Sequence record: SRR2962707_1896 | Direction: 5' to 3' (one strand) | Length of the DNA stretch: 37,510 nucleotides | Shown: piece by piece, positions 1,469 to 10,650 of the stretch | Layout: each line of letters starts with the position of its first letter | Numbering within the stretch: the stretch's first letter is position 1 | The notes under the pieces: model-generated | The model's database searches: none | The model's input: the letters and a program-made list of their open reading frames with translations, nothing else | What the model was told of the DNA's origin: nothing | Program-made: the position numbers and the translations under genes

Positions 1469-1654
1469 ATGAATGAATTAACTAAAGCAAGAATCTTCTG
1501 GATGTTTACACATCTAATGGTATTTGCCACGCTATTAATCCTTGTAGTGAGTTTGGCAGTAGGCCTGCATCACTGGATGAACGGCCTCATTTTATTCGCT
1601 TCACTCAACTCCCTGAGCTGGATTGCAATTCTGGTTCATCTCGCAAACAAATAA
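1469..1654 (+). CDS. Small hypothetical membrane protein (2 predicted TM helices)
   Basis: Tightly packed between neighbours (2-nt and 10-nt gaps), strongly hydrophobic. Confidence 0.65.
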   Translation: MNELTKARIFWMFTHLMVFATLLILVVSLAVGLHHWMNGLILFASLNSLSWIAILVHLANK

Positions 1655-1664
1655 GTTATCAACT

Positions 1665-2339
1665 ATGAAAAATTTAACATTCAATCAATTTGCTGGTATT
1701 TCAGCTATTGTTTCCGCACTTCTCTACATCATTTCCATTGTAGGTATGCAGTTCTATCTTGCTACAGATACAACCAACATGGCCCTTTTTGTAGAAAACA
1801 TGAATGAACATCATACACTGATGTTAATCTATGGGTGGCCTGGACTTGTTGCAACCTTGCTAATCATTCCGCTGGTTCAATCTATTCATCATCACAATCG
1901 AAAGCTTTCCGGATTCTCTAAGTTCATATATTCCTTTACTGTAATCGGTTTAGTTTTTGTAATGGTGGGTTATCTCATGCACCTGGCTATGATCTATTAC
2001 CACACTTCCATTTATGAAACCATGACTGACAAACAGGATGTGATCAGCGTCATCATTAAAACCACCATTGGTGTCCAAGATCTGTTTTGGTTGAGTGGAG
2101 ACTTATTCGCTTTTCTAGGTATAGGCCTTCTGGCCCTACTTGGCTGGAAAGAAGGCTACCTTTCCGGATCGCTTGCTAGTGCAGGAATGGTTGCTGGTTT
2201 CCTTGCTGCAATTGGAAGTTTCGGATTCATACCTTCAATGAAAGAGACTGGTATTAGCTTCCTATTCATTGGCGGATTCTCAGTCTTTGCAATTTGGGAG
2301 GTAATCCTTGGGATAATAATGCTGCGACTAAAAGACTAG
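1665..2339 (+). CDS. Polytopic membrane protein, DUF4386-like
   Basis: About 6 hydrophobic segments and a terminal F..WE..LG...L pattern; ATG 1665 avoids overlap with the upstream ORF. Family call is tentative. Confidence 0.75.
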   Translation: MKNLTFNQFAGISAIVSALLYIISIVGMQFYLATDTTNMALFVENMNEHHTLMLIYGWPGLVATLLIIPLVQSIHHHNRKLSGFSKFIYSFTVIGLVFVMVGYLMHLAMIYYHTSIYETMTDKQDVISVIIKTTIGVQDLFWLSGDLFAFLGIGLLALLGWKEGYLSGSLASAGMVAGFLAAIGSFGFIPSMKETGISFLFIGGFSVFAIWEVILGIIMLRLKD

Positions 2340-2345
2340 TAGATT

Positions 2346-2385
2346 AAACACATCAAAGCACAAATTCGTGTGCTTTGATGTGTTT
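2346..2385. terminator. Bidirectional terminator between convergent genes
   Basis: Perfect 17-bp stem AAACACATCAAAGCACA/TGTGCTTTGATGTGTTT with loop AATTCG. Confidence 0.8.
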
Positions 2386-3576
2386 TCAAAAATACCGTGT
2401 AATAGACGCCTGGATAAAACTATCATCTCTCAGGAAGGAGGTAAATTCAGTTGGATCAACGTTATCAAAAATCCTCGCTTCCAAAACACCTTTCCAGGAT
2501 GAACCTATTCGCCTGCTCGATTCGATGAAGTAAAGATCAGTGGAGCGATTTGCGTCATTAATCATTCCCATCAATACTTGCGTGTCTTTCACATCATTGA
2601 ATCCAAAACGGATACCACTAAAAATATCACTCTGTAATCCATTAAGGGCAATATCATCACGATCATCATAGAGGTATTCACTCAAGATACCAATGTCCAA
2701 TCCGGAACCTCCTACGTTACCGAAAGTGTATTCAAAACCTCCCGCCAGGGCGAAAACGTCCTGAAATTGGTTTTCCCGATAAATGGATTCCAGCTTAAGA
2801 AGTAATGAACCTGTAGTCACCTGTAGATCAATGCCTACTTGATTAATAATACCGTAGAGCGCACTAAAGGTCTCAAAGTTGGTAATTATCGGCTCTCTCC
2901 CAGTTCCATGAAAGTAGGATACGCCAAAGTCCAGCACTCCAACATAGTTGGACCATCTGGCAGCTACGGAAGGACTCCATCTTTTATCCGCACTTTCGAA
3001 TCCAAATTCACGGCTATCAACAACTACATCTGACAGGTCGCCGGGCCTCAATCGTCCCTTTCTGCCAGGAAATACGCGCTTCCTAAAGTAGGGCATGACA
3101 TAGAGATCCAATGTTCCGAAATCTCCCAGCAAAGACATATGTGCCATAAACTCTCCCAACTTAGCTTCTCCATCAAAACTCTCCACTACATCGGTTTGAT
3201 TGATGATGTCAACAAGGTGGATTGATTCAGTTTTGCCCCAAAACACTTTCTTGAACCCCAGGGAAAACTCAAAATCAGAATTGTAAGTCTGCCAGTAGAG
3301 TTCCCTTATGTCGAGATGCGTTCTTCTGCTATCGTATTGATCAACCCTGGCAAATCCCACAAACTTGATGCTGTGAACACCTTCGGCCCACTCATACAGG
3401 TATTCGGGTTGGATCGAAAATGAGAGATAATTTCTCTCCTGACCCGGATAGCTTCCTTCCTCAAAGAAATAGCGGTTGTTTGCCTCTAGCTCTATGGAGA
3501 AATCACTATAGGTGTCGTCCTGCGCTTGCAAGGATGAACCGATTACAACAAATAGTGCTACTAATGCTTTTTTCAT
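2386..3576 (-). CDS. Outer-membrane beta-barrel protein of an MMPL/LolA-like operon
   Basis: Signal peptide (SLQA-Q), alternating aromatic beta-strand pattern, IRELY...G.KKVFWG motif, C-terminal ..TRYF. Confidence 0.8.
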   Translation of the reverse strand: MKKALVALFVVIGSSLQAQDDTYSDFSIELEANNRYFFEEGSYPGQERNYLSFSIQPEYLYEWAEGVHSIKFVGFARVDQYDSRRTHLDIRELYWQTYNSDFEFSLGFKKVFWGKTESIHLVDIINQTDVVESFDGEAKLGEFMAHMSLLGDFGTLDLYVMPYFRKRVFPGRKGRLRPGDLSDVVVDSREFGFESADKRWSPSVAARWSNYVGVLDFGVSYFHGTGREPIITNFETFSALYGIINQVGIDLQVTTGSLLLKLESIYRENQFQDVFALAGGFEYTFGNVGGSGLDIGILSEYLYDDRDDIALNGLQSDIFSGIRFGFNDVKDTQVLMGMINDANRSTDLYFIESSRRIGSSWKGVLEARIFDNVDPTEFTSFLRDDSFIQASITRYF

Positions 3577-3588
3577 GTTTTTGGTTTT

Positions 3589-3615
3589 AAAAACCCGGGA
3601 CTCTCCAGCCCCGGG
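3589..3615 (-). terminator. Intra-operon terminator-like hairpin
   Basis: Minus strand reads CCCGGGGCT-GGAG-AGTCCCGGG followed by TTTTT, between the LolA-like stop and the barrel start. Confidence 0.6.
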
Positions 3616-3640
3616 CTACTCACCTAACTCAAATCACATA

Positions 3641-4429
3641 CTACCTTCCAATTCGCTGGAGAGTAGTTTGATTGAAATCTTCCTCCTTTAATCCGGTTTT
3701 GAACTGGTAGTCTTCAAAAAACAGCTCGGTCTCTTTGCCTGTCTGATGATTGACCATATAAAATCTACTAGCTCGATGATGTTTGTCCAGATAAACCTTG
3801 TAATCATGGTAGGTCAAGGTTTTCAACAAGGCCCCTTTCCGATCGTAAAACTCCGCCTTTTCATATCTGTAGTTCTTTGAAGGATTATAATACACCACCC
3901 TTTTCTGATATCCGGATTTTGGATCAACCGGATATTGCTCCACCTTAAGCAATTTGGCTCCATTCACATTCTCTTCTCCAATAAACTTGTAAGTGTATTT
4001 CTCAACCTCGTCGGAAGACAAATCCTCGTAAGCAAATTCACTTCCCATAAAGGGTCCAGATTTGTTGCTGGATGAGATTCGTTTCACTCGTTTGATCGCA
4101 GGCAAGTAAAGCCATTGATCATCTGAACCAACCTTATGAGTGAAGGTCAGCGTGGCAGTTCCCTCAACATCACGAGGGCTTTTAAAAACGATCAAGGACT
4201 TGTCTCCGTCTTCTGTCAATTCATATGTCATGTTGGACATGAAGCGCTCACTTTCCTGACCTTGTCTGTTTCTTAGAATCATTCTCAGATCAACTTCCGA
4301 TGATTCAAATCCATAGTCCGCCTTAATGGCTGTCTCAGCGATTTCTTTGCCCTTCTGTTCGGGTGATTGCCCGAAGGCATTTAACACTACCAATAACGTG
4401 ATTGATATAATTATTTCTAGTCGTTTCAT
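3641..4429 (-). CDS. Outer-membrane lipoprotein-sorting (LolA-like) periplasmic protein
   Basis: Signal peptide; family motifs F.SP.DV.GT..L, DDQWLYLPA.KRVKRI, FMGSEF.YED and EFYDRKG.LLK; 4-nt overlap with the MMPL gene. Confidence 0.9.
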   Translation of the reverse strand: MKRLEIIISITLLVVLNAFGQSPEQKGKEIAETAIKADYGFESSEVDLRMILRNRQGQESERFMSNMTYELTEDGDKSLIVFKSPRDVEGTATLTFTHKVGSDDQWLYLPAIKRVKRISSSNKSGPFMGSEFAYEDLSSDEVEKYTYKFIGEENVNGAKLLKVEQYPVDPKSGYQKRVVYYNPSKNYRYEKAEFYDRKGALLKTLTYHDYKVYLDKHHRASRFYMVNHQTGKETELFFEDYQFKTGLKEEDFNQTTLQRIGR

Positions 4430-6792
4430 TGAGTTGCTTGTTTTAGTTCTAGTGATTTTTTCTGAGTTTTAGCTGTGATCAGCAGGAATGCCGGAAGCAT
4501 CAAAAAGTCGATAATCAATGCACTGACGATGATAATAGCTGTCACCTTGGCCATTCCTTCATTCATACCGAAACTGGATTGTGATAAAATGACAAACCCG
4601 GATATTAGTACCAGAGTGGTCACTACAAGAGCTCTCCCTACGGTATCAAAGGCATATCTAACTGCGTCTTCCGGGGAATATCCATGCTCCCGGATGGCTC
4701 TTAAGTACTTTGTGAGAAAGTGAATGGTATCATCAACGATGATCCCCAGTGTCATTCCGAATACAATGGAAATTCCAATGTTGATTTTACCACCTAGTAG
4801 GGCCCAAATTCCAAAACCCACGACAGCAGGAGTCAAATTGGGTAGCAGACTAATGATGCCATGGCTAAAACTTCTCAGGGCCAGTACAAGTACAAATGTG
4901 ATTAAACCAATCGCCATCAAATTGCTACTGATCAGGCTCAGAATCTGAGTTCGGGATAAGTAGGCAAACATCATCGTAGGGCTAATCCCATTGGTATGCA
5001 TGTAGGCCGGAGTATTTTCCTGAAGCCAGCTCTCCGCTCGCTGAGCAAATGCAATCATGGATTTGGATGGCATATTGGTAAGCGTGGCGGTGAGTCTTGT
5101 CTCTGACTTATCTACGTTGATCTGATTGTTCAAATCCAATCCGAATGGAAGGGACATTTCATAGAGAAGCAGGTATTGAGCAGCTTCTTCCCTATTTGTG
5201 GGCACCTTGTAAAAGGATTGATCGTCACCGTGCATGGATCTGTTTACCCGCCGGGCAATTTCTGAGTAGGCATTTACATGCACCACCTCCGGCTGATCTT
5301 CCAGCCATCTTTCGAATCTTTCTAGCTTTTCCAGGTATTCGGGGTTATTGATACCTCCGGATTCACCTGCAGAGAGTGAAAATTCAGTGTTGTAGATACC
5401 CGTTAGATTTTCATTGATGAAATCAGTATCCTGACGGAATGTAACACTCTGATCAAAGTACTTGATGAACTCATCGTTGAGATCAATATTGAAGGCGAAA
5501 AATCCCAAAGAAGCAATGACAACAGCCGAACCACCCAGAGTAGCCCATCTGTTTCCAATAACCGTATTGGCAATTCGATTGTAAAAACTCTTCTCCGGAT
5601 CTTTGCTTTTTTTGCTCGCCCTCACTTTGACAGGCAGAAGAGACATCATAACCGGCAACAGGGTAACCGAAAATAAAAAGGCTCCCACCATGCCTACTGC
5701 TGTAATATTTCCTAAATCCCTGAAAGGTGGAACCTCCGCTGTGTTCAAGGACAAGAATCCAATCACAGTTGTGAGACTTGTAATGAATACCGGCATGAAA
5801 TTCACTCTCAGGCTTTCTACGATTGCTTCCCTCTTCCCTAGTCCTTTCCTCATTCCCTGCATCATAGTGATCAAAATGTGAATACTGTCTGCCACGGCAA
5901 GTGTCATGATAATAATTGGAGCGGCACCTGATGGCGGAGTGAGCTTGATTCCCATATGACCGGCAAATCCCATCCCAAATACGATCGAAAACACAATCAC
6001 AAGAAGCGACACAATCGTTCCTGACAATGTTCGCGTTGAGATGAAAATTGTGACGAGAATGGCTAGAAACATCAATGGAATAAGCGTCGCACTATCCCTT
6101 TGCGATGCTTCGAAAAAAGCACTGTTTAACATCACCATTCCAGAAAGGTGTGTCTTCAGATTAGGATGCGCTTCTTCAAACTTTTCAGCCATTTCCCTCA
6201 CATGAGCAACTATGATTGGGTTTTCGTTGACATTCTCTCCAGGTAGTTGAACGGTGACATTAACAGCCGCAACTGTTCCACTTTCGTTTAAAAGCCGGTG
6301 CACGAGAAGAGGCTCACCAAGCGCAACCGAACGAATATGTTCAATTTCATCCTCATCCTTTTGTGAGGCTAACGTTACCAGATCTTCCACATAAAGATCA
6401 TCCTCCTGGGCATACGTGTGCTGGAAGTTGGTGATAGCATCTACCCTTGTAGAAAATGGGACCTGCCAGGATTGAGTGGTCAGGTCCTCGATTGCATCCA
6501 GTGTCTCTGCATTGAAAATCTTACCCTCAGCAGGCTCAATAACAATAAGTACATTATCATCTTGTGTGTACTTCTTCTGCAATGCCTCATAAGCCATCAA
6601 CTGCGGATTATTCTTTTTAAAGAACACCCGATAATCACCATCAAATCCAAGTTTGGCCCCACCTGAACCAAAAGCCATTGCCAATGCAATACTTAAAATG
6701 AGAACAGGCCATCGATACTTAATGACCCAATTCCCCCATTGTTCTCCAAACTGCTGAGAACTCTTTTTCATTTTGTTTAGCGAATACTTCAT
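4426..6792 (-). CDS. MMPL/RND-family inner-membrane transporter
   Basis: Two repeats of TM + periplasmic domain + 5 TM; motifs LAVADSIH, ITSLTT.IGF and GIIVDDTIH. Start could be 6792 or 6771. Confidence 0.92.
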   Translation of the reverse strand: MKYSLNKMKKSSQQFGEQWGNWVIKYRWPVLILSIALAMAFGSGGAKLGFDGDYRVFFKKNNPQLMAYEALQKKYTQDDNVLIVIEPAEGKIFNAETLDAIEDLTTQSWQVPFSTRVDAITNFQHTYAQEDDLYVEDLVTLASQKDEDEIEHIRSVALGEPLLVHRLLNESGTVAAVNVTVQLPGENVNENPIIVAHVREMAEKFEEAHPNLKTHLSGMVMLNSAFFEASQRDSATLIPLMFLAILVTIFISTRTLSGTIVSLLVIVFSIVFGMGFAGHMGIKLTPPSGAAPIIIMTLAVADSIHILITMMQGMRKGLGKREAIVESLRVNFMPVFITSLTTVIGFLSLNTAEVPPFRDLGNITAVGMVGAFLFSVTLLPVMMSLLPVKVRASKKSKDPEKSFYNRIANTVIGNRWATLGGSAVVIASLGFFAFNIDLNDEFIKYFDQSVTFRQDTDFINENLTGIYNTEFSLSAGESGGINNPEYLEKLERFERWLEDQPEVVHVNAYSEIARRVNRSMHGDDQSFYKVPTNREEAAQYLLLYEMSLPFGLDLNNQINVDKSETRLTATLTNMPSKSMIAFAQRAESWLQENTPAYMHTNGISPTMMFAYLSRTQILSLISSNLMAIGLITFVLVLALRSFSHGIISLLPNLTPAVVGFGIWALLGGKINIGISIVFGMTLGIIVDDTIHFLTKYLRAIREHGYSPEDAVRYAFDTVGRALVVTTLVLISGFVILSQSSFGMNEGMAKVTAIIIVSALIIDFLMLPAFLLITAKTQKKSLELKQATQ

Positions 6793-6829
6793 CTTTTTTT
6801 GCAACTGGTTAGTTTTTTCAGTTTATGAA

Positions 6830-6908
6830 TATTTCGTATATCGAAATAATTTCAACCTATAACGAAAGACAAATATTTTAGTTCATAAATATTTCGATTT
6901 TCGTATTA
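6830..6908. promoter_or_regulatory. Two candidate MarR operators
   Basis: TATTTCG-N5-CGAAATA (6830-6848) and imperfect TATTTCG-N5-CGTATTA (6890-6908) in the divergent intergenic region. Confidence 0.55.
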
Positions 6909-6953
6909 TATTTTTTCTGAAACATTTAAAAGCAGATTTTTGTCTTATATATA

Positions 6954-7424
6954 TTGACAAGAAGACGAGGTGGAATAAAGAATTTGGACAACACGAATCA
7001 ACATACTGATTTTGCTGAGGCGTTCCCTAGAATATTCGCGAAGCTGATCATGCGTATGCAGCAGGTTGATGATACATGCGTGCAAGCCACTCAGGACATT
7101 ACGAAGCAGGATTTAATGTTGGTTGAGTTTGTTGGCGATCACGATCAGGTGATCATGAGGGATATTGCAGAATTTCTCCAGACGCCTCATAGTACAGCCA
7201 CCGGAATCGTGGATAAGCTTGTACAGAAAGAATATTTGAAACGATACTATTCGGAGGAAGATCGAAGAACAGTCTTGGTAGGTCTAACCAAAAAAGGCCT
7301 GGATCTCAAAAACCTTTTCTGCAACATGAAAAATGAAATGAGTACCAGGATAGCTTCAATTCTGTCTCAATCAGAGAAAGACCAGATTCTCAAAATCTTA
7401 CAAAAGATAGAGGGACATATTTGA
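6954..7424 (+). CDS. MarR family transcriptional regulator
   Basis: HTH STATGIVDKLV.K.YL.R and wing EDRRTVLV.LT.KG; start uncertain (TTG 6954, TTG 6984 or later). Confidence 0.92.
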   Translation: MTRRRGGIKNLDNTNQHTDFAEAFPRIFAKLIMRMQQVDDTCVQATQDITKQDLMLVEFVGDHDQVIMRDIAEFLQTPHSTATGIVDKLVQKEYLKRYYSEEDRRTVLVGLTKKGLDLKNLFCNMKNEMSTRIASILSQSEKDQILKILQKIEGHI

Positions 7425-7463
7425 AGGTGGATACGTATCAAAACACGCTCTCTCAAAAGTCAC

Positions 7464-7617
7464 AAAAAAGCCCCGGTCAGCCTATATCAAAATCTCTTAC
7501 AAGAAAGATCATGGTACCAGCTTTCCTATTCAATGATCCCGTAAAGGGCGTGATTTAGCAGGACAGACAAGCCCATTTATTGTTACAATCTCAGATTTGT
7601 ATATTGCTAACCAAGGC
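7464..7617 (-). ncRNA. Putative structured small RNA of unknown family
   Basis: ORF-free unit with a perfect -7 element upstream, nested inverted repeats (7476-7568) and a 3' GGGGC-TTTTTT end. The ends are estimates. Confidence 0.55.
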
Positions 7618-7621
7618 AAGA

Positions 7622-7629
7622 CAAAGGTA
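7622..7629 (-). promoter_or_regulatory. Bacteroidota -7 promoter element pointing into the putative sRNA
   Basis: Minus strand TACCTTTG matches TAnnTTTG; only a weak -33 (TTTA) lies 19 nt upstream. Confidence 0.6.
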
Positions 7630-7658
7630 AGTATTATTAAAACCTACCTAAATTATTG

Positions 7659-7674
7659 TTGCGAAATTTCGCAA
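7659..7674. promoter_or_regulatory. Perfect 16-bp palindrome, candidate regulator binding site
   Basis: TTGCGAAATTTCGCAA, with no flanking T-tract of terminator type. Confidence 0.5.
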
Positions 7675-7688
7675 ACCAATCCGTGATT

Positions 7689-9926
7689 CTAAGGTGATCT
7701 CTGCCAGGAACGTTCAACCAAAACCTGTGAATCCTCCTTTAATTTGAAATAGACTGATCCAATATTCAGTATATCGAGTGTGCCTATTTTTCCTACCGAA
7801 TTTGGTTGAGTTATGACTGACCAGACAATCTGTTTGCTGCGATTATCAGAATATTGAATGGTGATTTCCACTTCCCCCTTGTAAGGTTCCAAACGATCAT
7901 TGACAAGGTATACTTCCAGGGAATCACCTGCTTGCCTTGGAATAACAGTCACAGGTGCAAACAAAGTTTTTAACTGTTGATGGAAGATCTTTTCATTCCC
8001 AAATACATCTATGCTACTCCAGCTTGGTCCTGGCCAGCAGTCGTTGAGTTGCCAATACAGGCTCCCCCAGCAATGACCTTTGTTCAGTCGATGAGCATCA
8101 ATGGCCATTTGCATACCCAGCGCTTGTGTTTCCTGGCTTTTGATCACAAAGTCCTCGAAATTCTCCGGTTGTTCAAAATACTTCTCCAGATGACGACTTA
8201 TCATTCCATTCCCAACATAGCTTTTCTGATGATTGCTCATCACTTCTGAATCAAGATTCCACTCCGAGGAATCAGCGAAAAAGCGAATGGTTTCCATATC
8301 AGGAAAGGATTGAAAGCCGTATTCACTCATGAACCGCCCAACATTGTTCCAGTAATCCTCAAAGCTGTCTCCCCCATGCCAGACACCCCAGTAGTGCATG
8401 CTTCCATAATTGAAATTCTCTGGTGTGCCCCAATTACTTAAGGGCGATGTGGTGGTATAAGATCGATCATCCAATTCGGAAAGCACAGATGGAATGAGCA
8501 CATGAAATAATTTCAGATAGTCATTCCAAATGCGTGTAGAGTCAGCTTCTGAATAGCCAAATTGCTTTTGCCAACCCCAGTTTTTCCACGCCACCTCCAT
8601 TTCGTTGTTGCCATTCCAATGAATGATAGACGGATGATTTCTGAGTCGCTTCACATTATCCACCACCTCAGCCTTAACGTTGTTCAGAAATGAGGAATCC
8701 CCAGGATACATACTACCGGCAAACATAAAATCCTGCCAAACAAGGATGCCATATCGATCACATAATTCATAAAACAGATCATTCTCATAAATGCCTCCTC
8801 CCCATACACGCAGCATATTCATATTAGCATCCTTTACCGATTGAATCAGACGTTCATAATCTTCTTTTGACACAGATGGCAAAAAGTGACTTTGAGGAAT
8901 ATAATTGGCCCCTCGTGTGAATAGTGATTCCCCATTGACTTTGAAATAGAAAGACTCGCCAATGCTGTCCGCTTCCTGCACCAGCTCAACCGTTCTGAGG
9001 CCGAAATGTACAGTATCAGAATCGAGGGAAATTCCTTCCATTTTGATGGCAATCGGAATTGCATAAAGTTTCTGGTTTCCCCAGCCATTTGGCCACCATA
9101 GCTCAGGATTCTTGATTTCAAATGGAATACTAAAATGATTCTCCCCTTCTTTTAACTGGAATTCATATGATTGATTGTAAACCGCTATTTGAACCGAATG
9201 TTCACCTTCCGAAAAAACCGTAATATCTGCCTCGAGTGAGGCAAGGCTATCTGTAAGGACTTTTTGATTAATTCTTGCGTCAGCTAACCTGGCTCTTTTC
9301 CATTTTTCCAGGTAAACAGGCCTCCAAAAGCCTGAGGTAACCAACCTGGGTCCCCAGTCCCAGCCAAAATGATAGGGTGCTTTCCTTGTAAACGGGCTGA
9401 CTTTGAATGCCACGGTTTCGCTACCTGCTGGTAATTCATAGCCTAATGTTTGAAGCTTTGGCTTGTTGTGTTCAACCGGGGATATAAATCTTACTTCAAG
9501 CAGATTCTTTTCCAGAAGAATATTCTTAACAGGAATTCTCCATTCTCTGAACATATTGTTCGCCTTGAGAATCAGCGAATCATTTAACCGTACCTCTGCA
9601 TAAGTATCCAGACCTTCAAAAATCAGATCAACCTGGTTGTTTAGAAAATCATCTTGTGTCAATTCAAACTGAAATTGGTACTCCCAGTTTTCGTTTTCAA
9701 CCCACTGCACTTTGATTTCATTGGTGCCTTTCCAAGGATGTGGGATTAGGTTGTGATTCAAAAGATCTGAGTGGACAACACCTGGCACTCTGGCATCATA
9801 CCATTTCTCAGTTCCTTCTTGCCTGAATTGCCATCCATTTTCAAGTTGAATTTTGGTTAATGACTGATCCTGATCAGCGCAACTGATCAAAAGCAACAGA
9901 ACGAACGTGCACTTAATCCATTTCAT
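7689..9926 (-). CDS. GH2 beta-mannosidase, lipoprotein
   Basis: RKAPYHFGWDWGP, GANYIP, NMNMLRVWGGG, acid/base WNGNNE and nucleophile SEYGFQ; lipobox LLISC from ATG 9926. Confidence 0.92.
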   Translation of the reverse strand: MKWIKCTFVLLLLISCADQDQSLTKIQLENGWQFRQEGTEKWYDARVPGVVHSDLLNHNLIPHPWKGTNEIKVQWVENENWEYQFQFELTQDDFLNNQVDLIFEGLDTYAEVRLNDSLILKANNMFREWRIPVKNILLEKNLLEVRFISPVEHNKPKLQTLGYELPAGSETVAFKVSPFTRKAPYHFGWDWGPRLVTSGFWRPVYLEKWKRARLADARINQKVLTDSLASLEADITVFSEGEHSVQIAVYNQSYEFQLKEGENHFSIPFEIKNPELWWPNGWGNQKLYAIPIAIKMEGISLDSDTVHFGLRTVELVQEADSIGESFYFKVNGESLFTRGANYIPQSHFLPSVSKEDYERLIQSVKDANMNMLRVWGGGIYENDLFYELCDRYGILVWQDFMFAGSMYPGDSSFLNNVKAEVVDNVKRLRNHPSIIHWNGNNEMEVAWKNWGWQKQFGYSEADSTRIWNDYLKLFHVLIPSVLSELDDRSYTTTSPLSNWGTPENFNYGSMHYWGVWHGGDSFEDYWNNVGRFMSEYGFQSFPDMETIRFFADSSEWNLDSEVMSNHQKSYVGNGMISRHLEKYFEQPENFEDFVIKSQETQALGMQMAIDAHRLNKGHCWGSLYWQLNDCWPGPSWSSIDVFGNEKIFHQQLKTLFAPVTVIPRQAGDSLEVYLVNDRLEPYKGEVEITIQYSDNRSKQIVWSVITQPNSVGKIGTLDILNIGSVYFKLKEDSQVLVERSWQRSP

Positions 9927-10650
9927 CAAGCAGAATTTTAATTCGACGCACCTTTTCGGGATCAGAAACAATCAATTCATTTTCAGGAATGTCTTTAGAA
10001 CCATTCATTGGTACTTGGTGATTCATCGCACTTTTGATTCGACTCTTTGCTGAAAAGTGAAATTCCCTACACCCAGCTTCATAAAATGAGCGAATGTTAT
10101 GCTCGTTTATCCCTCCTCCGGGCATAATGCTAATTCTACTTCCAGCCCTGGATGCAAGGTTCCTGATCGTATCCAACCCTTGAATCGCGGTTGGAGCTTG
10201 TCCTGAAGTTAGAACGCGATCCACACCTAAAGAAATGAGATCATCCAAAGCTTTTACAGGATCGGCAACAAGGTCAAATGCACGATGAAAGGTGAATGGC
10301 AAAGGTCGTGTGAGCTTAACCAGTTCTGAAGTGCGATTCACATCTATGGTTCCATTGGCATTTAGAATTCCGGATACGATACCATCTGCACCGGCCTCCT
10401 TTGCTCGCAAAATATCTTTTTTGATGATGTCAAATTCAAGATTATCATATACAAAATCACCACCCCTTGGACGTACAAGTACAAAAACCGGAATGGTCAA
10501 CTGATCTTTGGCGAGCTCAATAGATGCGATGCTTGGAGTGGTACCCCCTTCCCATAAATTATCACACAATTCCACACGATCAGCTCCACCCAATTCAGCA
10601 TTTATTGCAGATCTGACAGAATTAGCACAAATTTCAATTTGATAACTCAT
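9913..10650 (-). CDS. cutC: CutC family TIM-barrel protein
   Basis: EICA, GADRVELC, GGTTPS, RPRGGDF, TFHRAFD, VLTSG and IMPGGG motifs. Confidence 0.95.
   Translation of the reverse strand: MSYQIEICANSVRSAINAELGGADRVELCDNLWEGGTTPSIASIELAKDQLTIPVFVLVRPRGGDFVYDNLEFDIIKKDILRAKEAGADGIVSGILNANGTIDVNRTSELVKLTRPLPFTFHRAFDLVADPVKALDDLISLGVDRVLTSGQAPTAIQGLDTIRNLASRAGSRISIMPGGGINEHNIRSFYEAGCREFHFSAKSRIKSAMNHQVPMNGSKDIPENELIVSDPEKVRRIKILLDEMD

Follow-up and report, generated by a model that had tools for sequence, protein, structure and literature searches.

6S RNA, as described in PMC8876501, is a rod with a closing stem and an apical stem on either side of a central bubble, and it is encoded by a single gene. 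The same source gives its mechanism: the RNA is bound by the housekeeping holoenzyme, a product RNA (pRNA) unwinds a helix called P2, and in 6S-1 a small hairpin forms in the 3' strand of the bubble. Weinberg et al. 2010 (PMC2864571) list 6S-Flavo as an RNA of the Bacteroidetes that does the job of 6S RNA. In the supplement to that paper the alignment file bears the heading 'merge into 6S RNA family', with a remark on its overlap with known 6S. Ryan et al. 2020 (PMC7366714) report experimental validation of the 6S RNA of Bacteroides thetaiotaomicron together with its pRNAs, citing a 2014 source for the prediction in Bacteroidetes; by their account, therefore, the mechanism operates in the Bacteroidota. 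Guérin et al. 2021 (PMC9723704) count 6S RNA among four known RNAs detected in Flavobacterium psychrophilum. A search of the literature brought up nothing specific on 6S RNA in the Cytophagales, and Wehner et al. 2014 may already list such RNAs.

I propose that the window, a stretch of 37,510 nucleotides from sequence record SRR2962707_1896, carries at 7464..7617 of its minus strand a 154-nt gene that I take, with good confidence, to be the 6S RNA of this Cytophagales lineage, a compact and diverged member of 6S-Flavo. What was found is a single-copy, independently placed gene with a fixed promoter box, a covarying rod and homology to 6S-Flavo. By analogy with 6S RNA, its most likely role is that of a decoy for RNA polymerase.

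The gene and its boundaries

A MarR-family gene (6954-7424, plus strand) and the gene for a GH2 glycosidase (7689-9971, minus strand), both assigned from the list of open reading frames and Pfam, converge on a gap of 264 bp (7425-7688). An earlier note, made from the letters of the window, had pointed to an RNA in this gap, and everything it said of the sequence itself is correct: the gap and its convergent flanks, a perfect palindrome TTGCGAAATTTCGCAA at 7659-7674, a -7 element TACCTTTG at 7622-7629, and GGGGC followed by six U at 7464-7474, the last three on the minus strand. The gene begins 4 nt past the -7 box and ends in the U tract, 40 nt from the marR stop codon, and two models of the RNA, R1 and R2, match it over its full length. 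The minus strand is the RNA strand because of the numerous conserved G-U pairs, the U tract and the promoter.

The box at 7622..7629 is of the Bacteroidota -7 type (consensus TAnnTTTG), as judged by its sequence and by the homologous loci. A similar box, agreeing at five or more of the six fixed positions, stands upstream of the RNA in all 25 loci and is perfect in eight. From the end of the box to the first base of the closing stem there are 4 nt in 20 loci and 5 nt in the other five, a positional fit far above chance, and a box so fixed in place predicts the start of the transcript to within a base or two. Beyond it, no further conserved element appears upstream of the 25 loci. A scan for sigma-70 promoters and terminators returned none for the RNA, with a tool that is blind to Bacteroidota promoters and to stems whose arms lie 125 nt apart.

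At the other end is the U tract (7464..7469, minus strand). The aligned tail is mostly T in all 25 sequences, one A or C interrupting it in two, and closing stem and U-rich tail persist throughout the alignment; together they likely form an intrinsic terminator. In the interval from the marR stop codon to the 3' end of the RNA (7425-7463), a scan found no hairpin or terminator for marR, and transcripts of marR may therefore run into the antisense of the RNA gene.

Conservation at 25 loci amid varying neighbours upholds the central claim of the earlier note, an independently transcribed, structured, non-coding RNA with its own promoter, and upholds as well its start near 7617 and its U-tract end at 7464. 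The note had also held that the RNA acts in trans and is not a riboswitch, since no gene lies downstream, and the changing neighbours of a conserved gene bear this out. A processed form of 110 nt, which it had thought possible, is without support in this analysis.

The same note had called the RNA regulated, with the upstream palindrome in view. TTGCGAAATTTCGCAA is the sole perfect 16-nt palindrome of the window, where at least one such palindrome arises in 48 of 100 shuffles. It lies 14 nt past the stop codon of GH2 and, counted from the start of the RNA, between about -42 and -57; by eye it is not present upstream of the other 24 homologues. As an operator or a part of the gene it is unsupported, being at chance level in shuffles and confined to the window among the 25 loci. 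It is no conserved part of the gene, and the description of the RNA as regulated is therefore unsupported. The palindrome could be a weak terminator hairpin of GH2 or a local operator.

Structure of the RNA

Folded from the predicted start, the full 155 nt form a rod (minimum free energy -43.9 kcal/mol, z = -2.31, equalled by 3 of 200 shuffles) closed by pairing between the two termini, GCCUUGGUUAGC at the 5' end and GCUGACCGGGGC at the 3' end. Read on the minus strand, the rod starts with the closing stem, continues through a P2-like helix into a central bubble (16 nt on the 5' strand, 15 nt on the 3' strand) and is capped by an apical arm. In the closing stem (helix 1), 7606..7617 pairs with 7470..7481; across the alignment 98.3% of this helix is paired, with 8 of its 12 pairs changed on both sides, and its 3' arm is likely the terminator stem. 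Beside the bubble lies the P2-like helix (helix 2, 96% paired), whose 5' strand AUAU-CAAA-UCU at 7593..7604 pairs with the 3' strand at 7484..7495, and whose UCU/AGA extension is seen in the consensus made with MAFFT and RNAalifold.

The 5' strand of the bubble, 16 nt at 7577..7592, is nearly invariant (GAGAAUGUAACAAUAAA in the family) and unpaired in both consensus structures. The 3' strand takes up 15 nt at 7496..7510 in the consensus structure, and in it a small hairpin can be drawn (UUUCU-UGUA-AGAGA, 7493..7506; helix 6, five pairs, 96.7% paired, one changed on both sides). This hairpin and the UCU/AGA extension of the P2-like helix cannot form together, the rival pairs being 7593-7595 with 7493-7495. 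A motif in the 3' bubble strand that resembles the -7 box was considered as a promoter mimic and rejected, its match being inconsistent by eye between the window and the family. The apical arm (7511..7576, with its loop at 7541-7545) holds the motifs common with 6S-Flavo, GCUAAAUCACGCCC ... GGGAUCAUUGA, and in its helices 3-5 the bases of 12 of the 22 pairs have changed on both sides.

Over 25 sequences and 47 pairs, 96.5% of cells pair; sliding the 3' partners along leaves 44.3% at most. Changes on both sides are found in 23 of the 47 pairs, and none of 500 shuffles reaches any of the five measures used. The alignment from which these figures come (A2) was fitted to the model itself. An independent check, with MAFFT and RNAalifold on 22 of the 25 sequences, recovers this rod, compensatory changes being present in 19 of 45 pairs, and an alignment of just the window and two homologues gives it again with 15 of 47. 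The three sequences left out of the check (L121:1501-1689, L125:1501-1688 and L126:1501-1686) have about 35 additional nucleotides inserted in the apical loop, resembling extra hairpins, e.g. CCUCUUCGGAGG, the remainder of the RNA being unchanged.

The fold that the earlier note had drawn is a different one, a closing stem opening into a multi-way junction within a segment of 112 nt. Each of its listed pairs can form in the window, but the fold as a whole is neither conserved nor above chance. The segment has a minimum free energy of -27.4 kcal/mol (z = -0.21; 79 of 200 shuffles fold equally well), and its minimum-energy structure is not the one drawn. Pairing over the 22 pairs of that fold comes to 83.0% on A2, where shuffles average 82.2% and 12 of 500 do as well; four pairs are changed on both sides, a number equalled by 39 of 500 shuffles. 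Neither the closing stem nor the junction holds up on the 25 homologues: CCU/AGG is paired in 47.9% of cells, 13 of the 25 lack the third pair of GUC/GAC, and the C-G pair of GAUCAU/AUGAUC forms in 1 of 25, the window alone. Two of the component hairpins are kept, CCC-loop-GGG (100%) and UCU-UGUA-AGA (95.9%), and the rest are lost. The misfolding came about because the 5' 45 nt, which supply one side of both the closing and the P2-like helix, had been omitted. Once they are included, closing stem, central bubble and apical arm are all present, contrary to the statement that the RNA lacks 6S features.

Kinship, distribution and position

At gathering thresholds Rfam has no match in the whole window. 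In E-value mode, in a search of 361 nt, 7491-7600 of the minus strand spans the whole of RF01685 (6S-Flavo), positions 1-108; the alignment scores 30.7 bits (E 0.009), and both the apical hairpin and the GCUAAA/GGAUC-UUGA motifs are conserved in it. Comparison with Rfam thus finds a family for the RNA, at a score below that family's gathering cut-off of 85 bits. This alignment and the reciprocal searches with my own models make the RNA a diverged 6S-Flavo or 6S-type RNA, and it can no longer be called, as it was, an orphan of a family without a name. A match to SraB (12.2 bits, E 5.6) is noise. The model of canonical 6S RNA, RF00013, has no match in 7380-7740 even at E <= 10, nor at that limit in any of four related genomes; it also finds none in the B. 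thetaiotaomicron control, despite the validated 6S RNA there. RF01685 has a match in that control genome only at E between 1 and 10.

In four of five relatives the best genome-wide match of RF01685 is the locus found by my own models: an Ekhidna sp. metagenome-assembled genome (MAG; G001, 37.5 bits), G174 (35.0 bits) and G155 (34.9 bits), in both of which it falls in the same place as the match of R1, and G003 (28.4 bits). It is not so in G002. Among flavobacteria, the Lutibacter genome (G195) scores 105.6 bits, over the cut-off, and two Flavobacterium genomes (G194 and G193) score 80.6 and 76.1 bits, under it.

The search works in the other direction too. R1 was built from the window and two Cytophagales homologues, with no flavobacterial sequence. 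With filters off it matched three flavobacterial loci (L098, L099 and L097) over their full length of 158-160 nt, at 42.6, 41.4 and 33.8 bits, and the alignment takes in the closing stem CCUACAUUAG/CUAAUGUAGG and the U tract, which lie outside the 108-position Rfam model. Genome-wide in Lutibacter its sole match is the 6S-Flavo locus (E 5e-5, the E-values of R1 and R2 being rough). In two of the three flavobacterial genomes, both Flavobacterium, the genome-wide search missed the locus, which the prefilter dropped. R2 was built from the 25 sequences and the three flavobacterial ones, after an antisense match in L106 (28.3 bits) had been removed. It gave one match each in the genomes of Labilibaculum and Draconibacterium (48.4 and 44.8 bits; two of five genomes tried) and a weak match on the RF01685 locus of a Roseivirgaceae MAG. 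None was found in Odoribacter, Chitinophaga and Pedobacter, where the prefilter scores part of the candidates and absence is not implied.

The window RNA therefore shares with 6S-Flavo, a family of its own phylum, an alignment over the full model, the motifs GCUAAA-CA-GCC ... GGAUC-UUGA with the sequences flanking the bubble, reciprocal detection by a model built without flavobacterial sequence, and, as the flavobacterial loci show, a 5' end that pairs with the 3' end ahead of a U tract. It differs in its score, far from the cut-off like those of its relatives (35-37.5 bits), and in forming a distinct sequence subfamily of close relatives.

Relatives of the window were reached through the GH2 protein, whose best match (59% identity) is in the Ekhidna MAG. 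The best RF01685 match of that genome is an evident homologue of the window RNA, with compensatory changes in the closing and inner stems, and it lies on the same contig as the GH2 homologue, about 940 kb away. BLAST of the RNA against 151 genomes of the order gave six matches, and only those in G001 and G092 are homologues; the other four, of 21-57 nt, are on reading due to chance. R1 gave two matches in an even sample of the order (151 genomes), both in genomes used for its training. In a sample of the family (41 genomes) it matched strongly in G174 and weakly, over the full length, in G155; its matches in G157 and G161 (E 0.3-0.9) are noise, and R2 matched a different contig in G157. Among relatives of G001, exactly one match was found in each of 22 of 41 genomes, at 100-174 bits. 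The window itself has one R1 match, and a single copy per genome is known from the relatives. From these samples it follows that the window form belongs to a narrow group of genera and is present there as a single copy.

Other genera of the same GTDB family have longer homologues (about 197 nt), which R2 matched over their full length at 29-36 bits in 5 of 40 genomes sampled (L129-L133, in G155, G176, G157, G165 and G160). They share with the window RNA the bubble and its flanking motifs, the closing stem and the U tract. Unlike it they are some 45 nt longer, with an apical region that is expanded and branched, and in places they are nearer the 6S-Flavo consensus (CGAGUGAAGC, GCUCAAAUC). The one in G155 is also the best RF01685 match of its genome. 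The long forms are too diverged for reliable detection by BLAST or R1. A pattern scan of metagenomes produced three loci with local matches to the apical motif only (12.6-17.5 bits) and no rod, and these are not homologues.

The neighbours of the RNA differ across the 24 homologous loci; among them are an S41 peptidase, DUF349 proteins (3), an aminotransferase, an integrase, histidine kinases, RlmF-like methyltransferases (2) and FtsX permeases. Neither GH2 nor MarR stands beside the RNA in any of the 24. In eight of them an open reading frame of about 173-186 codons on the same strand, with no Pfam match to its product, lies 3' of the RNA (L091:1692-2231, L106:894-1412, L108:258-782, L113:904-1428, L114:1701-2258, L115:1678-2232, L116:1700-2257 and L117:1697-2227). 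DUF349 proteins are encoded upstream in three loci and make up, with that reading frame, a partial local synteny that is absent from the window.

The 6S-Flavo gene of Lutibacter (L138:1299-1458) lies between zapA (939-1271) and rny (1477-3045), in a spacer of 205 nt. The window RNA, between marR and GH2, is not in this position, which was seen in Lutibacter and is no formal criterion of the family. In the Ekhidna MAG (L135:1091-1482), zapA and rny are adjacent, with a spacer of 71 nt and no match to the RNA, and neither G001 nor G092, G174 or G155 has a model match near rny. With this position empty in the relatives examined and the RNA elsewhere, it follows that the gene changed its place in the Cytophagales lineage and that no second copy was left there beside rny. 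Within 100 nt upstream of the three flavobacterial loci (L097, L098 and L099) there is, by eye, no TAnnTTTG box directly before the closing stem, where the window RNA has one; GTTC ... (A/G)TACTGCC is common to them instead. This suggests that the flavobacterial 6S-Flavo loci have a different promoter, or that the RNA is processed from the zapA transcript.

Function and rival explanations

In shape the window RNA is like canonical 6S RNA (SsrS, RF00013; 6S of E. coli, 6S-1 of B. subtilis) as that RNA is described in PMC8876501. Both are rods with a closing stem, a bubble and an apical stem, in a range of about 150-200 nt of which 154 nt is the short end, and both have one gene per genome (for the window RNA, by its relatives). 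The P2-like helix lies beside the bubble, where it could be unwound by a product RNA, and the small hairpin in the 3' bubble strand has its like in free 6S-1 RNA. Unlike canonical 6S RNA, the window RNA has no match to RF00013, no similarity of sequence being detected. The 6S RNA of B. thetaiotaomicron (PMC7366714), detected by experiment along with its product RNAs, comes from the same phylum.

If the window RNA works as 6S RNA does, it would mimic an open promoter and occupy the sigma-A holoenzyme. A product RNA would then be templated on the 5' bubble strand (7577-7592) and on the 5' strand of the P2-like helix, a template role drawn from 6S biology as set out in PMC8876501. That product RNA would unwind the P2-like helix and the 3' strand would refold, the competing hairpin at 7493-7506 being a candidate for this step, after which the polymerase would be released. 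By this analogy I infer that the window RNA may both bind polymerase and direct pRNA synthesis. The result is a useful annotation, not a new kind of RNA, the mechanism of 6S RNA being already well known. The window and the Cytophagales relatives tested fall below the Rfam cut-off, so a 6S-type RNA goes unannotated there, and the 25-sequence alignment with models R1 and R2 is a means to find this subfamily.

One might suppose that the RNA acts in trans on a partner other than polymerase, as a base-pairing small RNA or a protein sponge, with the invariant bubble segments as seeds or binding sites and the likeness to 6S-Flavo a matter of descent or shape and not of function. Both bubble strands are nearly invariant across the 25 loci, as seeds would be, RF00013 is without a match, and in this analysis members of 6S-Flavo are tied to polymerase by inference. 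I nonetheless think this unlikely. The rod, the size of the bubble, the single copy and the length fit 6S RNA as PMC8876501 describes it; the 6S-Flavo motif was merged into the 6S family by its original authors, going by the heading in their supplement; and a rod of 150 nt with 23 covarying pairs is rarely kept by base-pairing small RNAs. Nor has another candidate for 6S RNA come to light, either by RF00013 in four relatives or beside rny in four Cytophagales genomes. The broader form of this supposition, that the 6S-Flavo superfamily, the compact Cytophagales form included, is a separate class of RNA specific to Bacteroidota, with a partner other than polymerase and with the bubble strands as its binding or seed sites, seems to me equally doubtful; on that reading the gene has left its place between zapA and rny and gained a near-consensus sigma-A -7 box in this lineage.

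Explanations that tie the RNA to its surroundings are far less probable than these. Its place immediately after GH2, on the strand of that gene, and the 40 nt between its 3' end and the marR stop codon might make it the 3' UTR or terminator region of GH2, or else an element that serves the convergent marR as antisense or in termination. It is very hard to reconcile this with 24 homologous loci of widely varying neighbours, none of them GH2 or MarR, with the 940 kb or so that separate the RNA from the GH2 homologue in the Ekhidna MAG, or with the promoter box at its fixed distance in all 25 loci. I give as little credence to a small protein (a frame of 16 codons from an ATG at 7576) or a cis-acting leader of a downstream gene, even though the aligned codon is ATG or TTG in 24 of 25 loci and a same-strand reading frame of about 175-186 codons, its product without Pfam match, follows in 8 of 24. 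The substitutions are compensatory changes in pairs, not synonymous ones; length differences in the apical loop, of 1-2 nt and of about 35 nt, put the frame out of register; a U-tract terminator closes the RNA in all loci; and the downstream reading frame is absent from the window and from most loci. A 6S RNA that belongs to the 6S-Flavo family remains the reading I prefer.

On its other side the marR gene is divergent from a cluster on the minus strand, the two together spanning 2386-7424 of the window. The cluster encodes an MMPL/RND-type transporter (4426-6804), a LolA-like protein (3641-4429) and a protein of 396 amino acids with no Pfam match (2386-3576), and it is probably an export operon controlled by MarR.
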